DNA of 14,487 nucleotides from Candidatus Diapherotrites archaeon CG10_big_fil_rev_8_21_14_0_10_31_34. Its GTDB lineage: Archaea; Iainarchaeota; Iainarchaeia; Iainarchaeales; 1-14-0-10-31-34. Position numbers and translations under genes: made by a program. Below the pieces are notes generated by a model. It searched no databases and was not told the DNA's origin. It saw only the letters and a list, made by a program, of their open reading frames with translations. The stretch spans positions 1-14,487 of the forward strand of contig PFAI01000038.1 in assembly GCA_002763225.1 (NCBI GenBank). Direction: 5' to 3'. Each line of letters begins with the position of its first letter. Positions within the stretch are counted from its first letter, which is position 1. This document shows, piece after piece, positions 1-7,663 of the stretch.

Positions 1-2510
1 ACTTTTTCTACATTAGTCATAGAAGAAAGAATTTCTTTTGAATTAGAAAAAGAAAGTTTTGTTTCTAAAACTAATTCATTTAATTTCCATCTTAAACGCA
101 TTTTTTCTTTTTCTCTTAAAGACAAAGCAGTCTGGGAAATTTCTTTAACCAAAGAAAACTCTTTTTCTAAATCCAAATCAATCAGTTTTTGATTATGCTT
201 TGGAAAAACAAGTAAGTGAACTGATTCAAGCATTTTTGGTTTTTTAAAATCACTGTAAATGTACTCTGAAAAATGAGGCAAAACAGGAGCCATTAATTTC
301 AGTAAATTAATTAAAACATAATTCATTGTAACTGAAACAGCTTTGTCTTTTCTATTCCTGATTAATTTAATGTAAGTCCTGCTGAATTCTTCTGTTACAA
401 ACCAGTTTAACTGGGAAACAAGCTTTGGATATAAATATTTTTCATATGCTTCAACTGAATCCCTGATTAAAGAATTAAGTTTAGAGACAATCCATTTGTC
501 TTCAGGCATTAATTCCTTTAAATCTTTTTCCTGAATTAAAGGATTTTTTTCTAAATACAAATTTAAGTAATTATAGGAATTAAAAAAGATTCCAAAAAAC
601 TTGTTGATGTCTTTGAATGCATTCCAGTCAAAAACAATGTCTTCTCCTTTTGACTGAGAACAAAAATAATACCTTAAAAAATCCCTGTTATGTTTTTGAA
701 TTACTTCTTTTGGCTGAATTGCATTTCCTTTTGACTTGCTCATCTTTTTTTTGCCTAAATCCAATACCATTCCATGAACCATAATGTTTTTGTAAGGAGT
801 TTTATCAAAACAAATAGTTGAAGTAATTAATTGCGAGTTCCACCAGCCTCGAACTTGCTCTGTTGCCTCAATGTTTAAGTCAGCTGGCCAGAATTTTTTA
901 AATAAATCATCTGATTTAGGGTAATTTAATGCAGCCCAAGAACTTACTCCTGCATCAAACCACACATCCAACACTTCTGAAACCCTTGAAAATTCTCCTC
1001 CACAATCACAAGAAAACTTGACTTTATCTATTTCAGGTTTATGCAAATCAATTGAATCTGAAACCTTTGCTTCTTTTTGTAATTCTTTTAGTGAACCAAA
1101 AACTTTTCTTTTATTACATTTACTGCAAACCCAGATAGGCAGTGGAGTACCCCAATATCTTGCCCTTGAAATAGGCCAGTCAGACAATGATTCAATCCAG
1201 TTATTCATCCTGTCATTCATCCAAGAAGGAATCCAGTTGTTTTCTGAATTTAATTCAAGCATTCTTTTTCTGATTGAACTGACTTTGAAAAACCATTGAG
1301 GAACTGAAAGCATTAACAAAGGAGTTTTACATCTCCAGCAAACAGGATAATCATGTGTGTATGGATGCTTTAAAACCAATGAATTCATTTCCTGTAAATC
1401 ATCAATTATTTCGGAATCAACTTTTCTTGCTTTTTTTCCCTGATATTTTCCTGCCTGTTCAGTCATTTCACCGTTTAATTTTACCGGAGAAAGAGAAGGC
1501 AAATTATTTTCTTTTCCTACTTCAAAGTCTTCTTTTCCATGGCCTGGCGCACAATGCACTAAACCAGTTCCTTCATCTAAATTAACATAACGGGAACTTA
1601 AAACAATTTTATAGCCTTTGCTCATGTCAGGCAAATTCAAATTTTTATTAAGCGGGTTTTCATATTTCCAGTCTTTTAGTTCTTTTCCTTTCCACACTTT
1701 TTTTTCTGTAAAACCTGCTTCAACTGAATCCATTAATTTTTGAACTAGTTCTTTTGCAATAATCCATTTTTCTCCTGAACTTAATTCAATTTCCGAGTAA
1801 TCAAATTCAGGGTTAACCATTACTCCAGTATTTGCAGGCAGAGTCCAAGGAGTAGTAGTCCAGATTATCAGGAAAGTATTTTTTTTGTCTTTTAAAGGAA
1901 ATTTAACATACACAGAATTATCTGTTTGTTTAATGTATTCAATTTCGTTGAATGAAACTGCTGTCTCGCATCTGGGGCAAACATGAACAGAGTATTCTCC
2001 TAAATACAATAATTTTTTTTCTTCTGCTTTTTTAAAAGTCCACCAAATGCTTTCAATGTACTCATTTTTCAGAGTAATATATGGATTCTCCCAGTCCATC
2101 CATACTCCAAGATTTTCAAATTCATTGTTTTGCTGGTCAATAAATTCAGTTGCATATTTCCTGCATTTTTTAATAAAATTTTCTACTCCAAACTTTTCAA
2201 TATCCTGCTTTGATTTAGTGTTAATTTCTTTTTCTACCTGAAATTCAATGGGAGTTCCATGAGTGTCATATCCTGGTCTATCAAAAACATTAAATCCATT
2301 CATTCTTTTATATCTAATTGAAACATCTTTCAAAATCTTGTTTAATGCAGTTCCCATATGAATATGGCCTGTTGCATAAGGAGGGCCGTCCATGAAATAA
2401 AAGCATTTTTTTTGTTTTGAACTTGTTTTTCTGGCTTTTTCCGGAATTTTGTTTTTTGCCCACTGCTTTCTGATTTCTTCTTCTTTTTGCAGAGAATAAT
2501 TTTCTAACAT
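1..2510 (-). CDS. ileS: Isoleucyl-tRNA synthetase (archaeal type); 3' end runs off the left edge of the window
   Basis: Absent from the ORF track because it has no stop in the window; translated by hand from ATG at 2510: MLENYSLQKEEEIRKQW...FYFMDGPPYATGHIHMGTALNKILKD (HIGH-type motif)...PGYDTHGTPIE...IWTTTPWTLPAN...GTGLVHCAPGHG (editing domain)...DWPISRARYWGTPLPIW...LDVWFDAG...QVRGWW...KKMSKSKGN (KMSKS). Confidence 0.97.
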   Translation of the reverse strand, partial: MLENYSLQKEEEIRKQWAKNKIPEKARKTSSKQKKCFYFMDGPPYATGHIHMGTALNKILKDVSIRYKRMNGFNVFDRPGYDTHGTPIEFQVEKEINTKSKQDIEKFGVENFIKKCRKYATEFIDQQNNEFENLGVWMDWENPYITLKNEYIESIWWTFKKAEEKKLLYLGEYSVHVCPRCETAVSFNEIEYIKQTDNSVYVKFPLKDKKNTFLIIWTTTPWTLPANTGVMVNPEFDYSEIELSSGEKWIIAKELVQKLMDSVEAGFTEKKVWKGKELKDWKYENPLNKNLNLPDMSKGYKIVLSSRYVNLDEGTGLVHCAPGHGKEDFEVGKENNLPSLSPVKLNGEMTEQAGKYQGKKARKVDSEIIDDLQEMNSLVLKHPYTHDYPVCWRCKTPLLMLSVPQWFFKVSSIRKRMLELNSENNWIPSWMNDRMNNWIESLSDWPISRARYWGTPLPIWVCSKCNKRKVFGSLKELQKEAKVSDSIDLHKPEIDKVKFSCDCGGEFSRVSEVLDVWFDAGVSSWAALNYPKSDDLFKKFWPADLNIEATEQVRGWWNSQLITSTICFDKTPYKNIMVHGMVLDLGKKKMSKSKGNAIQPKEVIQKHNRDFLRYYFCSQSKGEDIVFDWNAFKDINKFFGIFFNSYNYLNLYLEKNPLIQEKDLKELMPEDKWIVSKLNSLIRDSVEAYEKYLYPKLVSQLNWFVTEEFSRTYIKLIRNRKDKAVSVTMNYVLINLLKLMAPVLPHFSEYIYSDFKKPKMLESVHLLVFPKHNQKLIDLDLEKEFSLVKEISQTALSLREKEKMRLRWKLNELVLETKLSFSNSKEILSSMTNVEK

Positions 2511-2520
2511 TTTATCCCTT

Positions 2521-2548
2521 TTTTGATAAAACTTTTTCTAAAAGTTTT
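2521..2548. repeat. Short palindromic repeat, single-hairpin copy A
   Basis: ttttgat + aaaactttt-tct-aaaagtttt; ends 10 nt from the ileS start codon. Confidence 0.8.
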
Positions 2549-2549
2549 T

Positions 2550-2599
2550 GCAGTACGACTGAAAGTCGTACGTTTTGTTGAACCTTTTGGAAAAGGTTT
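2550..2599. repeat. Palindromic repeat, double-hairpin copy 1
   Basis: gca-gtacgact-gaa-agtcgtac, g, ttttgtt, g-aacctttt-gg-aaaaggtt-t; abuts the tRNA 3' end. Confidence 0.85.
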
Positions 2600-2600
2600 A

Positions 2601-2675
2601 TGGGCGTGGGAGGATTTGAACCCCCGACTCCTGGTGTATAAGACCAGTGCTCTAACCAGGCTGAGCTACACGCCC
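2601..2675 (-). tRNA. tRNA-Ile(UAU), intronless, CCA not encoded
   Basis: 75-nt cloverleaf: acceptor GGGCGTG/CACGCCC plus discriminator A; D arm GCTC-AGCCTGGTTA-GAGC; anticodon arm CTGGT-CT TAT AC-ACCAG (anticodon at 2640-2638); variable loop GAGTC; T arm GGGGG-TTCAAAT-CCTCC. Confidence 0.96.
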
Positions 2676-2762
2676 ATCGCGATTCCGCTCGCGAGCAACG
2701 GCGCACGACATTCATTGCATTCAGTCGTGCTGTCTGAGAAATAAAATAAAACCAATAAAATC

Positions 2763-2770
2763 CTTAAATA
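2763..2770 (-). promoter_or_regulatory. Putative TATA box for the tRNA-Ile (and possibly ileS) transcript
   Basis: Minus strand reads TATTTAAG, about 25-30 nt before the start of the GC-rich tRNA leader. Weak evidence in AT-rich DNA. Confidence 0.45.
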
Positions 2771-2799
2771 CTTATCCAAACCAAAACTTGTTTTTAAAG

Positions 2800-3483
2800 T
2801 TATGCGGAACCAGTTTTTGATACAACTTTTTCCAAAAGTTGTTCTTTGTGTTCAATTGAATGCATTATTAAATCTGCGGCAGTCTTCATCAACAGGAAAA
2901 GAACCAAAACAGAAGAAGTTGCTGCTGAAGCTCCTGACAAATCAATGACAAACCCCTGCACTAAAACAATAATGATTATGTGCATTGGGATTATTCTTAT
3001 ATAAGGAAAAAACATCAGGCTGCCTGCAGTATATTTTTTTGGGGAATCCTTAAACTTAATATAAGAAAAAAGATGGTTTAAGAAAAAAATTATTGCAACC
3101 AAAAAGACGTAACCAAAATCAACTGCAACTGAATTTCCTCCGAATAAAGGGAAAACAAAAGTGATTGAAACCAAAAAAACAAGGTAAACCAAGTGAAAAA
3201 TTCCATAATGGAAAACAAAAAAGAAACCCAAAAAGATTTTACCTAAAGAAGTTATCTGGTTTAATTGTTCTCCCAGAATCAAACGATTTTCTAAAGTAAT
3301 AATCCTAATAAAATTAAAGAATCCAATAATAACACTCTGGAACCAATAAATCCAGACAATAACAAAAACACTCCAGCTGAAAACAACTGCTAAAACAATT
3401 GTAATCAAGTTTGAAAGAATTAATACTTTAGCTGAAGAATCGTTTTGAACTGATTCAATTAAACCCTGAAAAGAAAAAGTCAT
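2800..3483 (-). CDS. Polytopic membrane protein, DUF6498-like
   Basis: 227 aa with about 6 hydrophobic segments; motifs LILSNLITIVLAVVFSW, IYWFQSVIIGFFN, FFFVFHYGIFHLVY, PYIRIIPMHIIII and KTAADL resemble that family from memory. Confidence 0.75.
   Translation of the reverse strand: MTFSFQGLIESVQNDSSAKVLILSNLITIVLAVVFSWSVFVIVWIYWFQSVIIGFFNFIRIITLENRLILGEQLNQITSLGKIFLGFFFVFHYGIFHLVYLVFLVSITFVFPLFGGNSVAVDFGYVFLVAIIFFLNHLFSYIKFKDSPKKYTAGSLMFFPYIRIIPMHIIIIVLVQGFVIDLSGASAATSSVLVLFLLMKTAADLIMHSIEHKEQLLEKVVSKTGSA
2815..2842. repeat. Short palindromic repeat, single-hairpin copy B (inside the 3' end of the CDS)
   Basis: ttttgat + acaactttt-tcc-aaaagttgt; encodes QLLEKVVSK on the minus strand. Confidence 0.8.
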
Positions 3484-3601
3484 AATAAATTAAAGTTATA
3501 GAAGAATAAAAGTGTTTCTATAGAAAAATAGAAAAATAAAAGAAAAAGAGAATAAAACTGGTTTATTCTTTGGTTTCTTTTTTTAAAAAATTGGTTTTAG
3601 C

Positions 3602-4135
3602 TTATTCGTCTGAAGAATCGTCTGAGTCATCGCTGTCTGAATTGCTTTCAGAATCTGAGTCACTTGAATCAGAATCAGAGTCATCTGAAGCTGGTTTTGA
3701 TTCGCTTTTAGGGCTTCTGTCAAAACTTCTTCTGTTTCCGCCGCCACCAAATCTGCCTCTGTTTCCGCCGCCAAATCTGCCTCTTTGTTCAAATTCTTTT
3801 TCTGAAACATTGTTTTCTTTGTTTACTTCGGCAACTTCTTCTTTTGAATCAGTTAATTCGCCGTATCTTCCAATATTCAGTCTTAAACAGTTTTTGAATA
3901 AAGAAGTATATGCGTTTGCAATTTTATAGGTTTTTTCTAGTTCAACTCTGTCAATCATATCATCCCATAAAGTCAATAAAATGATTCCTGATTCATCTCC
4001 TACTAATGCTTCAGTTACTTTATGATTAGAGTTGTCTAGTTTTGAAGTAACTTCTCTTACTTCATTTTTTTCTAATACTTTTACTGCTAATTCAACCTTT
4101 TTTTGAAAAGGTCTTAGTTCACTTATTTTATCCAT
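3602..4135 (-). CDS. ssb: Single-stranded DNA-binding protein (single OB fold, SSB/RPA family) with RG-rich linker and Ser/Asp-rich acidic tail
   Basis: MDKISELRP...VKVLEK..VREV...KVTEALVGDESGIILLTLWD...KIANAYTSLFKNCLRLNIGRYG is a typical archaeal OB fold. Start moved to ATG 4135 because of GGAGG SD at 4146-4142. 177 aa. Confidence 0.9.
   Translation of the reverse strand: MDKISELRPFQKKVELAVKVLEKNEVREVTSKLDNSNHKVTEALVGDESGIILLTLWDDMIDRVELEKTYKIANAYTSLFKNCLRLNIGRYGELTDSKEEVAEVNKENNVSEKEFEQRGRFGGGNRGRFGGGGNRRSFDRSPKSESKPASDDSDSDSSDSDSESNSDSDDSDDSSDE
3728..3784 (-). repeat. Imperfect coding tandem repeat in the SSB tail (RGRFGGGN x2)
   Basis: Plus strand tctgtttccgccgcca(cca)aatctgcc occurs twice. 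Confidence 0.8.
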
Positions 4136-4234
4136 GTTAATCCTCCGGTTAAACAACGAATTTAAAATCCTAAAAAAAATAGGGTAAAATTCGTTTAGTT
4201 AATATTAAAATCTTAGATAAACTCTTTAAAAAGA

Positions 4235-4242
4235 TATTTAAA
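4235..4242 (-). promoter_or_regulatory. Putative TATA box of ssb
   Basis: TTTAAATA on the minus strand about 100 nt upstream of the ATG, implying a leader of about 70 nt. Confidence 0.5.
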
Positions 4243-4271
4243 GCTAAATGCAGGTAAAAAAAAGAGAAAAA

Positions 4272-4321
4272 GAAGTATGGGTTTATCCCATACATTTTGT
4301 TACACCTTTTAAAAAAGGTGT
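4272..4321. repeat. Palindromic repeat, double-hairpin copy 2
   Basis: gaa-gtatggg-tttat-cccatac, a, ttttgtt, acacctttt-aa-aaaaggtgt; begins 2 nt after the TAG of the 4324-5007 gene and is followed by a U-rich tract on the minus strand. Confidence 0.85.
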
Positions 4322-4323
4322 TT

Positions 4324-5007
4324 CTATAGTCCTTTTCTAACTTCCATTACAAAGTTTTTGATGTCTTTTCTGAATGATAATCCAAAAGCAACTCCAAAAA
4401 TTATTGCAATTACTATTACTAAGACTGTAAAAGCAATTCTAAATGCTTCAACTAAAATAGTTGTATCAAAGCCAATATAGGATAAAGCCATTACCACTAC
4501 TAAATACATTACAACTATTTCTGCAATTAATGCCAGCATTGCTTTTTTTGGATAATTTGTTTTGTTTATTGTGTTTCTGATGTATCTGGCTAAATAAAAG
4601 CCTACAGCCAATAACAGCACTGCACTCAAAATTAATGGTACTTCAAAGACCAGCATTCCAATAAAGTCTGATAAAACATCTAATGCAAGCCAGTTAACTG
4701 CCTGAGCCAAAAACAATATTACAACATACCATTTAACTAATTCTCCAATTAAAATAGAAAAAGGTACTCCTCCAATTGCCTGAGGCAATTCATGAGACTC
4801 CAAGAAATGATCAACTTTAAGATATTGAATTATATAAACAACTGCTTTTTTCAACAGCAATGCAACAACATAACCAATTATTAATAACACAATTGCAATC
4901 GCTATTCCTGGAAGCACTTCAATAGATTTATTATACAAAGCTGCAATTGAATCAGCAACTCCTTTACCTAAAATGCCTGCAAAATCTAATGCTCCTTCAC
5001 CAATCAT
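4324..5007 (-). CDS. Conserved TM-helix repeat membrane protein (MscS-associated / CmpX-like)
   Basis: Two repeats of the pattern LPGIAIAIVLLIIGYVVA / VPLILSAVLLLAVGFYLA and a C-terminal AIIFGVAFGLSFRK; SD GGGTGATT upstream. Confidence 0.8.
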   Translation of the reverse strand: MIGEGALDFAGILGKGVADSIAALYNKSIEVLPGIAIAIVLLIIGYVVALLLKKAVVYIIQYLKVDHFLESHELPQAIGGVPFSILIGELVKWYVVILFLAQAVNWLALDVLSDFIGMLVFEVPLILSAVLLLAVGFYLARYIRNTINKTNYPKKAMLALIAEIVVMYLVVVMALSYIGFDTTILVEAFRIAFTVLVIVIAIIFGVAFGLSFRKDIKNFVMEVRKGL

Positions 5008-5055
5008 AATTTAATCACCCTAAAAAATTGTTTAATTGTAAATAATTCTGCTTTT

Positions 5056-5613
5056 CTATTTAAAAAGGTTACCCATTAAATCCCTTGTTTTCTCAAATAA
5101 ATCGTTTAAAGAGCCGTTATTATCTATTTTAAATTCAGCTAACAAAAAAACATTTTTCATCCCCTTTTTTTCTTCATCAAGTTTATCTCTGAAAGAAAAC
5201 TCTTCTAGTTCATCAGGATCCAATTCACTTCTTCTTTCAAACCTTTCATTTTCTTCTGCTTTAATTAAAACAAGTTTTGCTTCAGAAAACCTTTGCTTAA
5301 TTAATTCAATTTCTTCAGTTGACCTTGCTCCAACAAAAACAATTTTTTCTTCTTCTTTTTTGTTCAAACTTTTTTCAAAAGTTTGTTTTTCCAAAAGCTT
5401 TTGTGCTATTACTCCCATTCCAAACTCTTTTCTTAATTCATCTCCAAGCAAAGCCATGCTTTTCTTTGAAACTTCTTTTCCCTGTTTTATTAGTTCTTCT
5501 TCCAAAACAGAAGAAAAAACAAATTTTTTGAATCCAAATTCTTTCACTAAAAAGTCTGCTACCGTATCTTTTCCTGAACGGGCTTTTCCAAGCAAAATCA
5601 AAACTTGTTTCAT
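5056..5613 (-). CDS. P-loop nucleoside monophosphate / dephospho-CoA kinase-like protein (archaeal UPF0200-like)
   Basis: Walker A GKARSGKDT directly after MKQVLILL; LRKEFG, GARS, ERFERR, IDNNGSL. Start set at ATG 5613; the longer ORF-track N-terminus is read-through of repeat copy 3. Confidence 0.8.
   Translation of the reverse strand: MKQVLILLGKARSGKDTVADFLVKEFGFKKFVFSSVLEEELIKQGKEVSKKSMALLGDELRKEFGMGVIAQKLLEKQTFEKSLNKKEEEKIVFVGARSTEEIELIKQRFSEAKLVLIKAEENERFERRSELDPDELEEFSFRDKLDEEKKGMKNVFLLAEFKIDNNGSLNDLFEKTRDLMGNLFK
5358..5385. repeat. Short palindromic repeat, single-hairpin copy C (in frame inside the kinase CDS)
   Basis: ttttgtt + caaactttt-ttc-aaaagtttg; encodes QTFEKSLNK. Confidence 0.75.
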
Positions 5614-5643
5614 AGAAAGAAAAATGAAAGGAAAAAAGTAAAA

Positions 5644-5694
5644 GCAGTATGGGTTTACCCAATACATTTAGTTAAACCTTTTAACAAAAGGTTT
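5644..5694. repeat. Palindromic repeat, double-hairpin copy 3
   Basis: gca-gtatggg-ttta-ccc(a)atac, a, tttagtt, aaacctttt-aac-aaaaggttt; lies in a divergent intergenic region. Confidence 0.85.
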
Positions 5695-5746
5695 AAATAA
5701 AAACAAACGCATTATATTTTCATTATTTTTATGGAAGTGATTTGAA

Positions 5747-5962
5747 ATGGCCTTGATTAAAAAAACAAAACAAGAAAAGACTAAAAAAGAAAAAAAGAAC
5801 AAACCTATGCTAACACGGAAAGAAATAACAGTTAAAGTGATTAAAGAAATGAAACAAAACAAACCATGGGCCAAAGAGTATTCTGAAACAGGCATGCAGG
5901 ATAATTATGGAAAAGAAATTACTGCTGAAGTTAATAGAAAACTAATTAAACAGAAAAAATAA
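5747..5962 (+). CDS. Small Lys-rich hypothetical protein (71 aa)
   Basis: A-rich coding-strand bias like the other genes, SD-like AAGTGAT upstream of the ATG, TTATAT about 35 nt upstream; no recognisable family. Confidence 0.55.
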   Translation: MALIKKTKQEKTKKEKKNKPMLTRKEITVKVIKEMKQNKPWAKEYSETGMQDNYGKEITAEVNRKLIKQKK

Positions 5963-5968
5963 AAAAAA

Positions 5969-6018
5969 GCAGTACGGGCTTGTCCCGTACTTTTGGTTAA
6001 ACCCTTTGAAAAGGGTTT
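5969..6018. repeat. Palindromic repeat, double-hairpin copy 4
   Basis: gca-gtacggg-cttgt-cccgtac, ttttggtt, aaacccttt-ga-aaagggttt; overlaps the thermosome stop codon and is followed by U8 on the minus strand. Confidence 0.85.
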
Positions 6019-7663
6019 ACATCATGCCTGGCATTCCGCCCATACCACCCATGTCTGGAGACATTTGAGCTGAACCTTTGCTTGAACCTGCAACAATGTC
6101 ATCGATTCTTAAAATCATTTCAGTTACTTCTGCTGCAGAAGTAATTGCCTGTGTTTTGACATTTAATGGTTCAATTACATTAGAGTTTTTTAAGTCAACT
6201 AACTGTGCTTTAAAGACATCAACTCCAATGTATTTTCCTTCTGGTTTAGCATGTTTTGATCTCAAACTAACTAGTGTGTCAATTGGATCCATTCCAGCTG
6301 TTTCAGCTAAAGTTCTAGGAATTATTTCAAGTGTTTCGGCAAATGCATCAATTGCAAGTTGTTCTCTTCCGCCAATTGTTTTAGCGTATTCTCTTAATTT
6401 GACTGCAACTTCAATTTCACTGCTTCCTCCGCCTGCAACAACTTTTCCTATTTTAATTGCTGAAATAACTGCTCCTAATGCGTCATTTAAGGCTCTTTCT
6501 GCTTCGTCCATTATGTGTTCTGAACCGCCTCTGACTAAAATTGTTACTGCTTTAGGGTTTTTGCATCCTTCAACAAATACCATGTCTTCGTTAGCTACTT
6601 TTCTTGAAGAAACTAATTCTGCGTTTCCTAAGTCTTTTGAAGAAATATCTGAAACTCTTGTAACAACTTTTGCTCCGGTTGATTTTGCAAGCAATCCCAT
6701 GTCAGATTTTTTTACTCTTCTGACTGCAACAATTCCTTCTTTTGCTAAAAAGTGTTGTGCCATGTCATCAATTCCTTTCTGGCAGAAAACAACAGTTGCA
6801 CCGGATTTTTTTATTGCATCAACCATATCTTTTAACATTTTTTCTTCTTGGTCTAAGAAAGCCTGTAATTGATCTGGGGAAGTAATCTGAATTTTTGCAT
6901 CTGTTTCAGTTTCTTTTATTTCCAAAGCTGAATCAACTAAAGCAATTTTTGCATTCTTCATTTTTCTTGGCATTCCTTCATGAACTATTTCTTTGTCAAT
7001 TACTACTCCTTTAATTAATTCTGAATCAGTTAATCCTGCCCCACCTTTTTTTTCTATTTTAATTTTGTCTCTTTCAACAGTTATTTTATCGTTTTCTTCT
7101 TCTGCAACTGTTTTGATTCCTTCAACAACTAAATCAGCTAATTCTGTTGCAGCTTCAGCTGCTTTTCCTGTCATTGAAGTAACAGCAATGTTCTTCAAAG
7201 TTTTAACATCTTTGATTGTAACTGGATCAGCTATTTCTGTGTAAAATTCTTTTGCTTTTTTTGCTGCCATTCTATAACCATTAATTATAATTGAAGAATG
7301 GATTTCATCATCAAGCATTCTTTCTGCTTTTCCAAGTAATCCGCCTGCTAAAACTACGACTGTTGTTGTTCCGTCTCCGACTTCATTATCCTGAGTTTTA
7401 GCTATTTCTACTAACATTTTTCCTATTGGATGGTCAATACTCATTTCACTTAAAATTGTTGCTCCATCATTTGAGATTGTAACGTCTCCTAAATCATCTA
7501 CAATCATTTTATCCATTCCTTTAGGCCCTAAAGTAGATTTAACTGCATTTGCAACTGCTTTTGCAATTAAAATATTAATTCTTTGTGCGTCTCTTCCTTT
7601 GGTTCTTTTTGAGCCATCAGAAAGAAAAACAACTTGCTGGTTCATATTATCTGTTTGTGCCAT
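6017..7663 (-). CDS. thsA: Thermosome subunit (group II chaperonin)
   Basis: 548 aa; [53 protein letters not shown]-terminal [11 protein letters not shown]. The alpha/beta assignment cannot be made from sequence alone. Confidence 0.97.

Follow-up and report, generated by a model that had tools for sequence, protein, structure and literature searches.

What are the seven short hairpins that lie between positions 2521 and 6018 of the DNA above, and how did they come to be there? The stretch analysed (hereafter the window) is bases 1 to 14,487 of C44, a longer contig from a groundwater archaeon of the Iainarchaeota whose assembly we call G000 (1.04 Mb in 65 contigs, 31% GC, 81% complete); the best relatives of the thermosome encoded in the window are archaeal, at 55–69% identity, and the RNase P RNA of the genome is of the archaeal type. 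We find that the seven hairpins are members of a lineage-specific family of miniature palindromic modules, about 100 copies of a 28-base repeat that occurs at gene ends, tRNA flanks and some coding regions in this host and its relatives, and that copies have been gained and lost between congeneric genomes. The reading to which we incline, with a confidence a little better than even, is a miniature repeat resembling the repetitive extragenic palindromes (REPs) and bacterial interspersed mosaic elements (BIMEs) of bacteria and the Rickettsia palindromic elements (RPEs), one that spreads at the DNA level and is tolerated or co-opted at gene ends.

A first-pass annotation, made from the sequence alone, had placed seven copies of a repeat at 2521, 2573, 2815, 4295, 5358, 5667 and 5991, all in a single orientation. 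All seven are present with the arms it listed, and in every one the T-rich flank lies on the + strand. The flank itself, described as TTTTG(A/T)T, is exact in five of the seven (it reads TTTAGTT at 5667 and TTTTGGTT at 5991), and the loops, put at 2–3 nucleotides (nt), measure 2–4 nt. The copies exceed what shuffled sequence gives: the pattern TTTNGWTNNNNCYTTT, which covers the flank and first arm only and leaves out the second arm, matches the window eight times against 0.66 ± 0.84 in 200 dinucleotide shuffles, none of which reaches eight. Seven of the eight matches are the copies, and the eighth (3102–3117, − strand) lacks a second arm. Read on the − strand, every module in the window is a palindrome followed by A-W-C-AAAA, and four then add a second hairpin and TGC; in the same four (2573, 4295, 5667 and 5991), the copy comes second in a two-hairpin module, after GCA and a GC-rich hairpin of 7–8 bp. 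The shared orientation arises because the modules follow − strand genes, which here are those spanning 3 to 5667 plus the one at 6017–7663: in order, a class I aminoacyl-tRNA synthetase, tRNA-Ile(TAT), a DUF6498 membrane protein, an oligonucleotide-binding (OB)-fold single-stranded DNA-binding protein (SSB), a membrane protein, a P-loop kinase and the thermosome.

The same architecture recurs throughout the genome. The unit is an AT-rich palindrome of 19–23 nt (NNNN-C-T3–6, loop, A3–6-G-NNNN) followed on one side only by A-W-C-AAAA, and we located it by regular-expression and pattern scans with controls. Under a loose definition (a C-T3–6, loop, A3–6-G core with at least three of four outer pairs), G000 holds 262 palindromes, 118 of them tailed, against 97–117 palindromes and 4–8 tailed ones in five third-order Markov simulations; further copies thus exist well beyond the window, as a repeat family would have it. 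Tailed copies number 52 and 65 on the two strands, with one more tailed on both sides. Where modules adjoin, 27 of 28 pairs run head-to-tail and one is inverted, with a modal period of 28 nt that resolves into 21 + 3 + 4.

It had also been proposed that the outer arm bases vary between copies yet remain paired, and the genome-wide set bears this out. Among 117 instances found by core and tail alone, with the left arm left free, 83 have four of four outer Watson–Crick pairs, against 10.2 with shuffled partners. The CTTT/AAAG core is invariant across the family, and six arm subtypes dominate (ACAAC, AAACC, TAAAC, CAACC, AAAAC and CAAAC). Only 4 of the 71 unpaired cells in the outer arms are G·T, so pairing is kept as exact complementarity and not as RNA wobble. 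Arm and tail subtypes are linked: among copies with perfect outer arms, those ending in AC carry an ATC tail in 43 of 47 cases and those ending in CC an AAC tail in 20 of 23, which argues that AWC travels with the palindrome as part of the inserted unit. Tail positions that the search left unforced are 94–98% A. Folded as RNA, single hairpins are predicted to be weak (−4 to −8.5 kcal/mol, z-scores −1.8 to −3.3), and two-hairpin modules reach −19 to −23 kcal/mol (z-scores −4.4 to −5.3).

The GC-rich hairpins make up a second repeat family. They have 7-bp stems that start G-Y-R-C and are followed by TG(C), with 43 perfect copies in the genome against 0–2 in simulations; in 17 cases the hairpin comes directly behind the tail of a palindrome, and longer composite repeats contain further subtypes.

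How widely the palindromic family is spread was gauged with one count pattern (CTTTT, 1–5 nt, AAAG, NNNN, AWCAAAA), for which the reversed-pattern control gives 0–1 hits per strand. G000 has 91 hits; the five other genomes of its genus have 14–104, the maximum being in G003; three other genera of the family have 11–55; and 17 genomes of a second genus (g73) range from 0 to 64. Counts fall to 0–3 per genome in most other families of the order and to 0–1 in other orders of the class, and at least 10 hits occur in 23 of the 215 genomes of the phylum that were searched.

Comparison of orthologous loci, which the first-pass annotation had suggested as a check on mobility, turned up both filled and empty sites between congeneric species. 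We aligned 526 kb of G005 and 180 kb of G002 with G000, coding DNA being about 80% identical among syntenic genomes of the genus; 55 of the 118 tailed copies were bracketed in relatives, which gave 39 locus-by-relative comparisons. Away from stable-RNA genes, the relative's gap lacks such a palindrome in 26 of 28 comparisons. Entry into genes is equally visible. Module 5 is an in-frame surplus of 24 nt in the kinase gene, absent from all four aligned relatives of the genus, and surpluses of 15, 18, 42 and 60 nt, likewise in frame, occur in four other genes. The RNase P RNA of G000 contains a 56-nt insertion of two modules that is absent from 7 of 7 aligned relatives, and at a second site in the same RNA, G005 has one module, G006 has two, and G000, G001, G002 and G003 have none. 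A 43-nt intron at position 38 of the tRNA-Asn of G005 consists of palindrome, tail and 14 further nt, and the G000 ortholog is intronless. In the window, module 6 is missing from the equivalent position in the four aligned relatives. At 4275–4293, the 3' end of the membrane-protein gene, all five genus genomes compared have a GC-rich hairpin, with differing stems, and only some have the AT-rich palindrome before it. Module 3 occupies the site of the relatives' DUF6498 stop codon, and the G000 frame therefore reads through to 2800.

With positions assigned from a simple gene call and ARAGORN tRNAs, 95 of the 118 tailed copies lie outside called genes. Tandem gene pairs enclose 40 copies in sense and 19 in antisense, divergent pairs 21 and convergent pairs 6; inside genes there are 19 in sense and 4 in antisense, with 8 more at contig ends and the doubly tailed copy not assigned to a class. 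The modules of the window and the features that adjoin them are listed in Table 1.

Table 1. Palindromic modules, second hairpins and the adjoining tRNA gene in the window
Feature	Position	Strand	Description
Module 1	2521–2548	−	Palindrome 2528–2548, tail 2521–2527 (ATCAAAA on the − strand)
GC-rich second hairpin	2550–2572	−	Links modules 1 and 2; stem 2553–2559/2565–2571, conserved GCA/TGC flank
Module 2	2573–2599	−	Palindrome 2580–2599, tail 2573–2579; directly after the tRNA-Ile 3' end
tRNA-Ile(TAT) gene	2600–2676	−	3' end followed at once by module 2
Module 3	2815–2842	−	Palindrome 2822–2842, tail 2815–2821
GC-rich second hairpin	4275–4293	−	T-rich run after it on the − strand
Module 4	4294–4321	−	Palindrome 4302–4321 and tail; starts 2 nt past the membrane-protein stop (4324–4326)
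Module 5	5358–5385	−	Palindrome 5365–5385 and tail, inside the P-loop kinase gene
GC-rich second hairpin	5647–5665	−	One mismatch; divergent intergenic region
Module 6	5666–5694	−	Palindrome 5674–5694, degenerate tail (TTTAGTT on the + strand); between divergent gene starts
GC-rich second hairpin	5972–5990		Flanked by an A-run and T-runs; between two convergent genes
Module 7	5991–6018	−	Palindrome 5999–6018 and tail

We regard a spreading repeat as the best explanation because copy numbers are volatile and because one species can have a copy at an orthologous site where another has none. The non-autonomous, REP- or RPE-like character first proposed for these hairpins fits the high copy number, the counts among congeners, the filled and empty sites, and the insertions in frame and in RNase P RNA. 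Modules would multiply and vanish at the DNA level, much as REPs, BIMEs and RPEs do. The inserted unit would be the palindrome plus AWC, about 24 nt, landing in or just 5' of an A-tract, and the formation of a hairpin in single-stranded DNA or RNA would be part of propagation and would keep the arms complementary. Copies would survive where a weak extra hairpin does no harm: just after stop codons, in the leader and trailer segments of stable RNAs, within introns that are spliced out and within protein linkers rich in lysine or glutamate. The junctions point the same way at two sites, the second RNase P site and module 5, where the surplus comprises 24 nt, the palindrome and AWC, and stands immediately ahead of an A-run that was already there. 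We infer from such cases that a 24-nt unit enters A-tracts, with the proviso that junction alignments in AT-rich sequence are ambiguous; AAAA stands directly before the palindrome in 15 of 65 copies that have no module upstream. A putative function in the cell, for instance as a 3'-end hairpin or terminator helper, would be secondary.

The mover would be some enzyme other than a Y1/RAYT (REP-associated tyrosine transposase). A more particular route, which we think improbable, dispenses with a transposase and lets RNA processing set the ends of a mobile hairpin. RNase P, RNase Z or the splicing endonuclease would cut modules that lie against tRNA ends and exon–intron junctions exactly at the palindrome edge, and host repair or primase-type polymerases would copy the freed hairpin and its A-rich tail back into A-tracts by way of A-tract microhomology; tRNA loci would then be long-lived sources and other sites short-lived progeny. 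If this were true, the gain of archaeal tRNA introns would be tied to the life cycle of a repeat.

Several observations weigh against a repeat that merely spreads and is tolerated. Placement is not random: the palindrome side lies −4 to +6 nt from a feature end in 21 of 86 copies (11 stop codons, 5 tRNA 3' ends and 5 tRNA 5' ends); copies placed at random within their own gap give 4.7 ± 2.1, and the highest of 2000 trials gives 14. The tail side abuts a feature end in 1 of 86, a contrast that is partly an artefact because mRNAs have a Shine–Dalgarno leader, into which several tails run. Turnover is also uneven: beside tRNA and RNase P genes, 8 of 11 comparisons show a loose-type palindrome in the gap of the relative, and elsewhere 2 of 28 do (Fisher p = 1e-4; the 8 of 11 includes two rows for the tRNA-Ile of the window that were relabelled by hand after the script had missed them). 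Of the eight occupied gaps, four or five have a family copy at the same junction, in two the copy has moved between intron and flank, and in one the hairpin is of another repeat family. At three orthologous copies, one upstream of tRNA-Val, one next to a tRNA fragment on C31 and one behind the RNase P RNA, both arms have changed with pairing kept, which may reflect compensatory evolution or replacement by another subtype. Placement and persistence at stable-RNA genes, taken with these arm changes, could mean function rather than tolerance. Contigs from four groundwater DNA runs, carrying the same strain and compared at the contig level only, showed no polymorphism within the population and no clean empty-site joint, a comparison that carries little information.

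The searches for a mover count on the same side. The annotation had connected the hairpins with HUH/Y1 transposases of the RAYT and IS200/IS605 kinds, and this connection failed: Y1_Tnp (PF01797) has no match in G000 (at its 81% completeness), G003 or G005 and matches in three of nine family genomes, being absent from five of the eight family relatives of G000, the highest-copy genome included. At the eight Y1 loci fetched, of 11 Y1 matches, no tailed module lies within 1.5 kb, and an untailed loose-type palindrome is present at three. The TnpB zinc-ribbon domain was found in three of nine family genomes and none of the genus, and RVT_1 in two of nine, with none in G000, G003 or G005. Six G000 genes have modules on both sides, none nuclease- or transposase-like by its residues, and the one of the six that was run against Pfam, the module-flanked gene in the window, returned no hit. 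No target-site duplication appears at clean filled and empty sites, and clean termini were not definable. At the first RNase P site and two coding sites, the empty relatives already hold the whole tail-like stretch, so that the tail may belong to the element or to its target.

These observations lend weight to a different account, in which the palindrome, often with the GC-rich hairpin, is a functional gene-boundary signal transcribed at the ends of tRNAs, RNase P RNA and mRNAs, where it would help termination, protect the 3' end as a hairpin or mark a site of processing, with spread as a by-product. We consider it possible but on balance doubtful. Besides the abutting palindromes, the occupied stable-RNA gaps and the RNase P RNA 3' end, which a copy abuts in four of five genus genomes, it can draw on stop codons that fall within the stem, at the thermosome gene and at several TAAAC-armed copies, and on three of the four second hairpins in the window, which score as terminator-like. 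Yet the hairpins are weak as RNA, G·U pairs are not favoured, 21 copies lie between divergent genes and 23 inside genes, and counts that run from 14 to 104 in one genus and from 0 to 64 in another are a poor fit with a required signal. The annotation's second suggestion, an RNA processing or stability motif, may hold: copies lie against the ends of tRNAs, RNase P RNA and stop codons well beyond chance, but wobble pairs and hairpin strength lend it no help. As an intrinsic terminator, a GC-rich stem with a U-tract, the palindrome fails: it is AT-rich and weak and in its commonest orientation is followed in sense by AWCAAAA and not by a U-tract. The separate GC-rich hairpin has this feature, with T4 or more behind it, in just 11 of 43 copies, and terminator-like sites in the whole window (13) are not in excess of shuffles (8.9 ± 3.5). 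Runs of T5 or more occur within 30 nt at 6 of 11 modules that abut stop codons and at 279 of 911 other genes, numbers too small to decide.

Two further accounts were weighed. A site for a dimeric, lineage-specific DNA-binding protein, serving as roadblock, insulator or nucleoid element at gene boundaries, would suit the perfect DNA-level symmetry without wobble tolerance, the invariant core and the boundary placement. We hold it to be very unlikely, as the one-sided tail breaks the symmetry, insertions occur within genes and RNA genes, and no candidate protein was identified; moreover, the four outer pairs differ freely between six or more subtypes and stay complementary, which argues for fold-back and not for base read-out. 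Slimmer still, in our estimation, are the chances of a portable promoter, with the TTTTGWT tail as a TATA-like box near −27, the palindrome as spacer and the start right after it. The reversed module does abut +1 of six tRNA genes and, in four cases, a Shine–Dalgarno sequence followed by ATG, with the tail at about −29 to −23 and often AAAG-type bases ahead of it. But most copies face the opposite way, and the 40 that follow genes in sense would fire antisense into them. A G inside a TATA box is unusual, and the local form of a promoter is better illustrated by the canonical TFB-recognition element (BRE)/TATA sequence AGCTTTAAATAT (4225–4236, − strand), which is partly conserved in relatives. 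The volatile copy number tells against a promoter too, and since all nine family genomes have RNase P RNA, no exact start is required for tRNA 5' ends.

Some details of the window complete the description of the modules there. Module 1 ends 10 nt before the ATG (2510) of the aminoacyl-tRNA synthetase gene, the outer arm of module 7 overlaps the thermosome stop codon (6017–6019), which is paired in the predicted stem, and the terminator scan scores the 5972–5990 hairpin on both strands. Among Rfam models searched against the window, tRNA alone reaches its gathering score; sub-threshold matches over modules are aspC at 5634–5698 (29 bits, cut-off 100) and the L20 leader at 4263–4340 (24 bits, cut-off 59). 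Within 4137–4236 (− strand), the BRE/TATA sequence AGCTTTAAATAT is followed by a leader of about 90 nt before the Shine–Dalgarno sequence and ATG of the SSB gene. The leader contains a hairpin, AACGAATT...AATTCGTT, that is conserved in G002 and only partly in three other relatives, and it may be regulatory. Upstream of tRNA-Ile(TAT), at 2677–2735, there are two more hairpins, TCGCGA..TCGCGA and GCACGAC/14-nt loop/GTCGTGC plus TG, both of which recur beside other G000 tRNA genes in either orientation.

Further hairpins and introns occur at other tRNA genes. With introns allowed, ARAGORN reports many tRNAs with introns of 43–254 nt (G000 C13, C15, C16, C23 and C47; G005 C2); these introns begin with palindrome and tail right after position 37/38, and several end in a reversed module. 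A separate hairpin module, AAACGTTTCGCCGTTTAAGCAC, stands after several tRNA 3' ends and as its reverse complement before several tRNA 5' ends (G000 C9, C13, C23, C24, C25, C31, C47 and C48), with the outward-facing polarity of the palindrome family. A palindrome with one polypyrimidine (T/C-rich) and one polypurine (A/G-rich) arm around a CGG-type loop, joined to a GCAAC..TGCAC-type segment, is found within pieces of tRNA genes or next to them, where it seems to belong to long tRNA introns, at C3 1487, C14 1978, C15 25840, C27 325, C39 12557, C42 12648, C45 2548, C51 15329, C53 9783, C58 154 and C64 17506 of G000. At C47 12349–13735, a gene with a Fic motif (HPFxxGNKR) lies between tRNA-Tyr and a second copy of its last ~17 nt, both 3' copies being followed by the same palindrome, tail and hairpin; the region looks like a small island integrated at a tRNA 3' end. 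The RNase P RNA gene (C47 1688–2071) is 384 nt long, against 271–331 nt in most relatives, and a surplus of ~57 nt near the 5' end of this RNA is common to G000, G002 and G003 and missing from G005 and G001. Two ideas about tRNA genes were rejected: pairing of leader and trailer modules around one tRNA, as not one of the 23 listed tRNA genes is flanked by modules on either side at once, and leaderless tRNAs in a lineage missing RNase P, whose RNA all nine family genomes have.

Community data gave further glimpses of the family. Contigs of other groundwater runs break at modules. Contig depth over 5216–5416, the region of module 5, is 29–149 in four groundwater runs against about 1–10 beside it, and near-identical modules therefore occur in more abundant organisms of the same community; the run-2 contig over module 5 differs by one shifted base. 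A viral-contig collection contains at least 127 matching stretches, and among the 80 loci listed most are single, chance-consistent matches. On a handful of contigs binned as giant viruses (loci L202, L204, L218–L220 and L228) there are 3–9 tandem pattern matches, and the DNA is probably archaeal, from this lineage, and wrongly binned.

REP-type repeats whose life cycle is known have so far been a bacterial story, and a literature search at the abstract level found no paper on this family, on an archaeal REP counterpart of this kind or on Iainarchaeota repeats. Here the entry of a 24–28-nt hairpin can be traced between congeneric species in protein genes (in frame), in RNase P RNA and in tRNA introns, which bears on the origin of archaeal tRNA introns and on the tolerance of repeats in streamlined DPANN genomes. 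The family breaks assemblies and may mislead gene callers, as frames run on through modules. The range of 0–64 copies within a single genus makes the mobilising enzyme approachable by comparison of gene content.

Among known systems, miniature inverted-repeat transposable elements, or MITEs, have terminal inverted repeats around an internal segment and a target-site duplication, whereas the unit here is a single hairpin of 24–28 nt, with A-runs on both sides in just 15 of 65 solitary copies. A survey of MITEs in prokaryotes describes a high density in some DPANN genomes, by a method aimed at longer elements with terminal inverted repeats (PMC11602168). REPs, BIMEs and REP doublets forming hairpins (REPINs) are closer: they too are short palindromes of 20–40 nt with a conserved one-sided tag, at about 100 copies per genome and mostly just after genes, retained vertically within a lineage and divided into subfamilies, and a short palindromic extragenic repeat at high copy number is what we find. 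Bacterial REPs also supply stop codons and occur inside open reading frames, according to PMC3733652, as these modules do. The present family differs in being archaeal, in its AT-rich, weak stem where that of REPs is GC-rich, and in its tag, AWCAAAA, in place of the GTAG or CGTC of REPs, which is not present here. REPs have a cognate RAYT (a Y1 HUH enzyme) and no RAYT tracks this family; its arrays run head-to-tail, whereas REPINs are inverted doublets and BIMEs alternate; and it abuts tRNA ends and forms tRNA introns. With IS200/IS605 elements it shares a subterminal hairpin beside a short fixed sequence and insertion by a short specific target, here seemingly an A-tract. It departs from them in that TnpA and TnpB are absent from G000 and most of the genus, no copy lies near the relatives' Y1 genes, and no replication-strand bias is demonstrable (over the 526 kb of G005 and 180 kb of G002, orientation does not clearly switch with GC skew, the counts being too low). 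Rickettsia palindromic elements, which are not known to have a transposase, are palindromic repeats of about 100–150 nt inserted in frame in protein genes. Our family resembles them in its in-frame surpluses of 15–60 nt and its RNase P RNA insertions, and is set apart by units of only 24–28 nt that are concentrated at tRNA genes.

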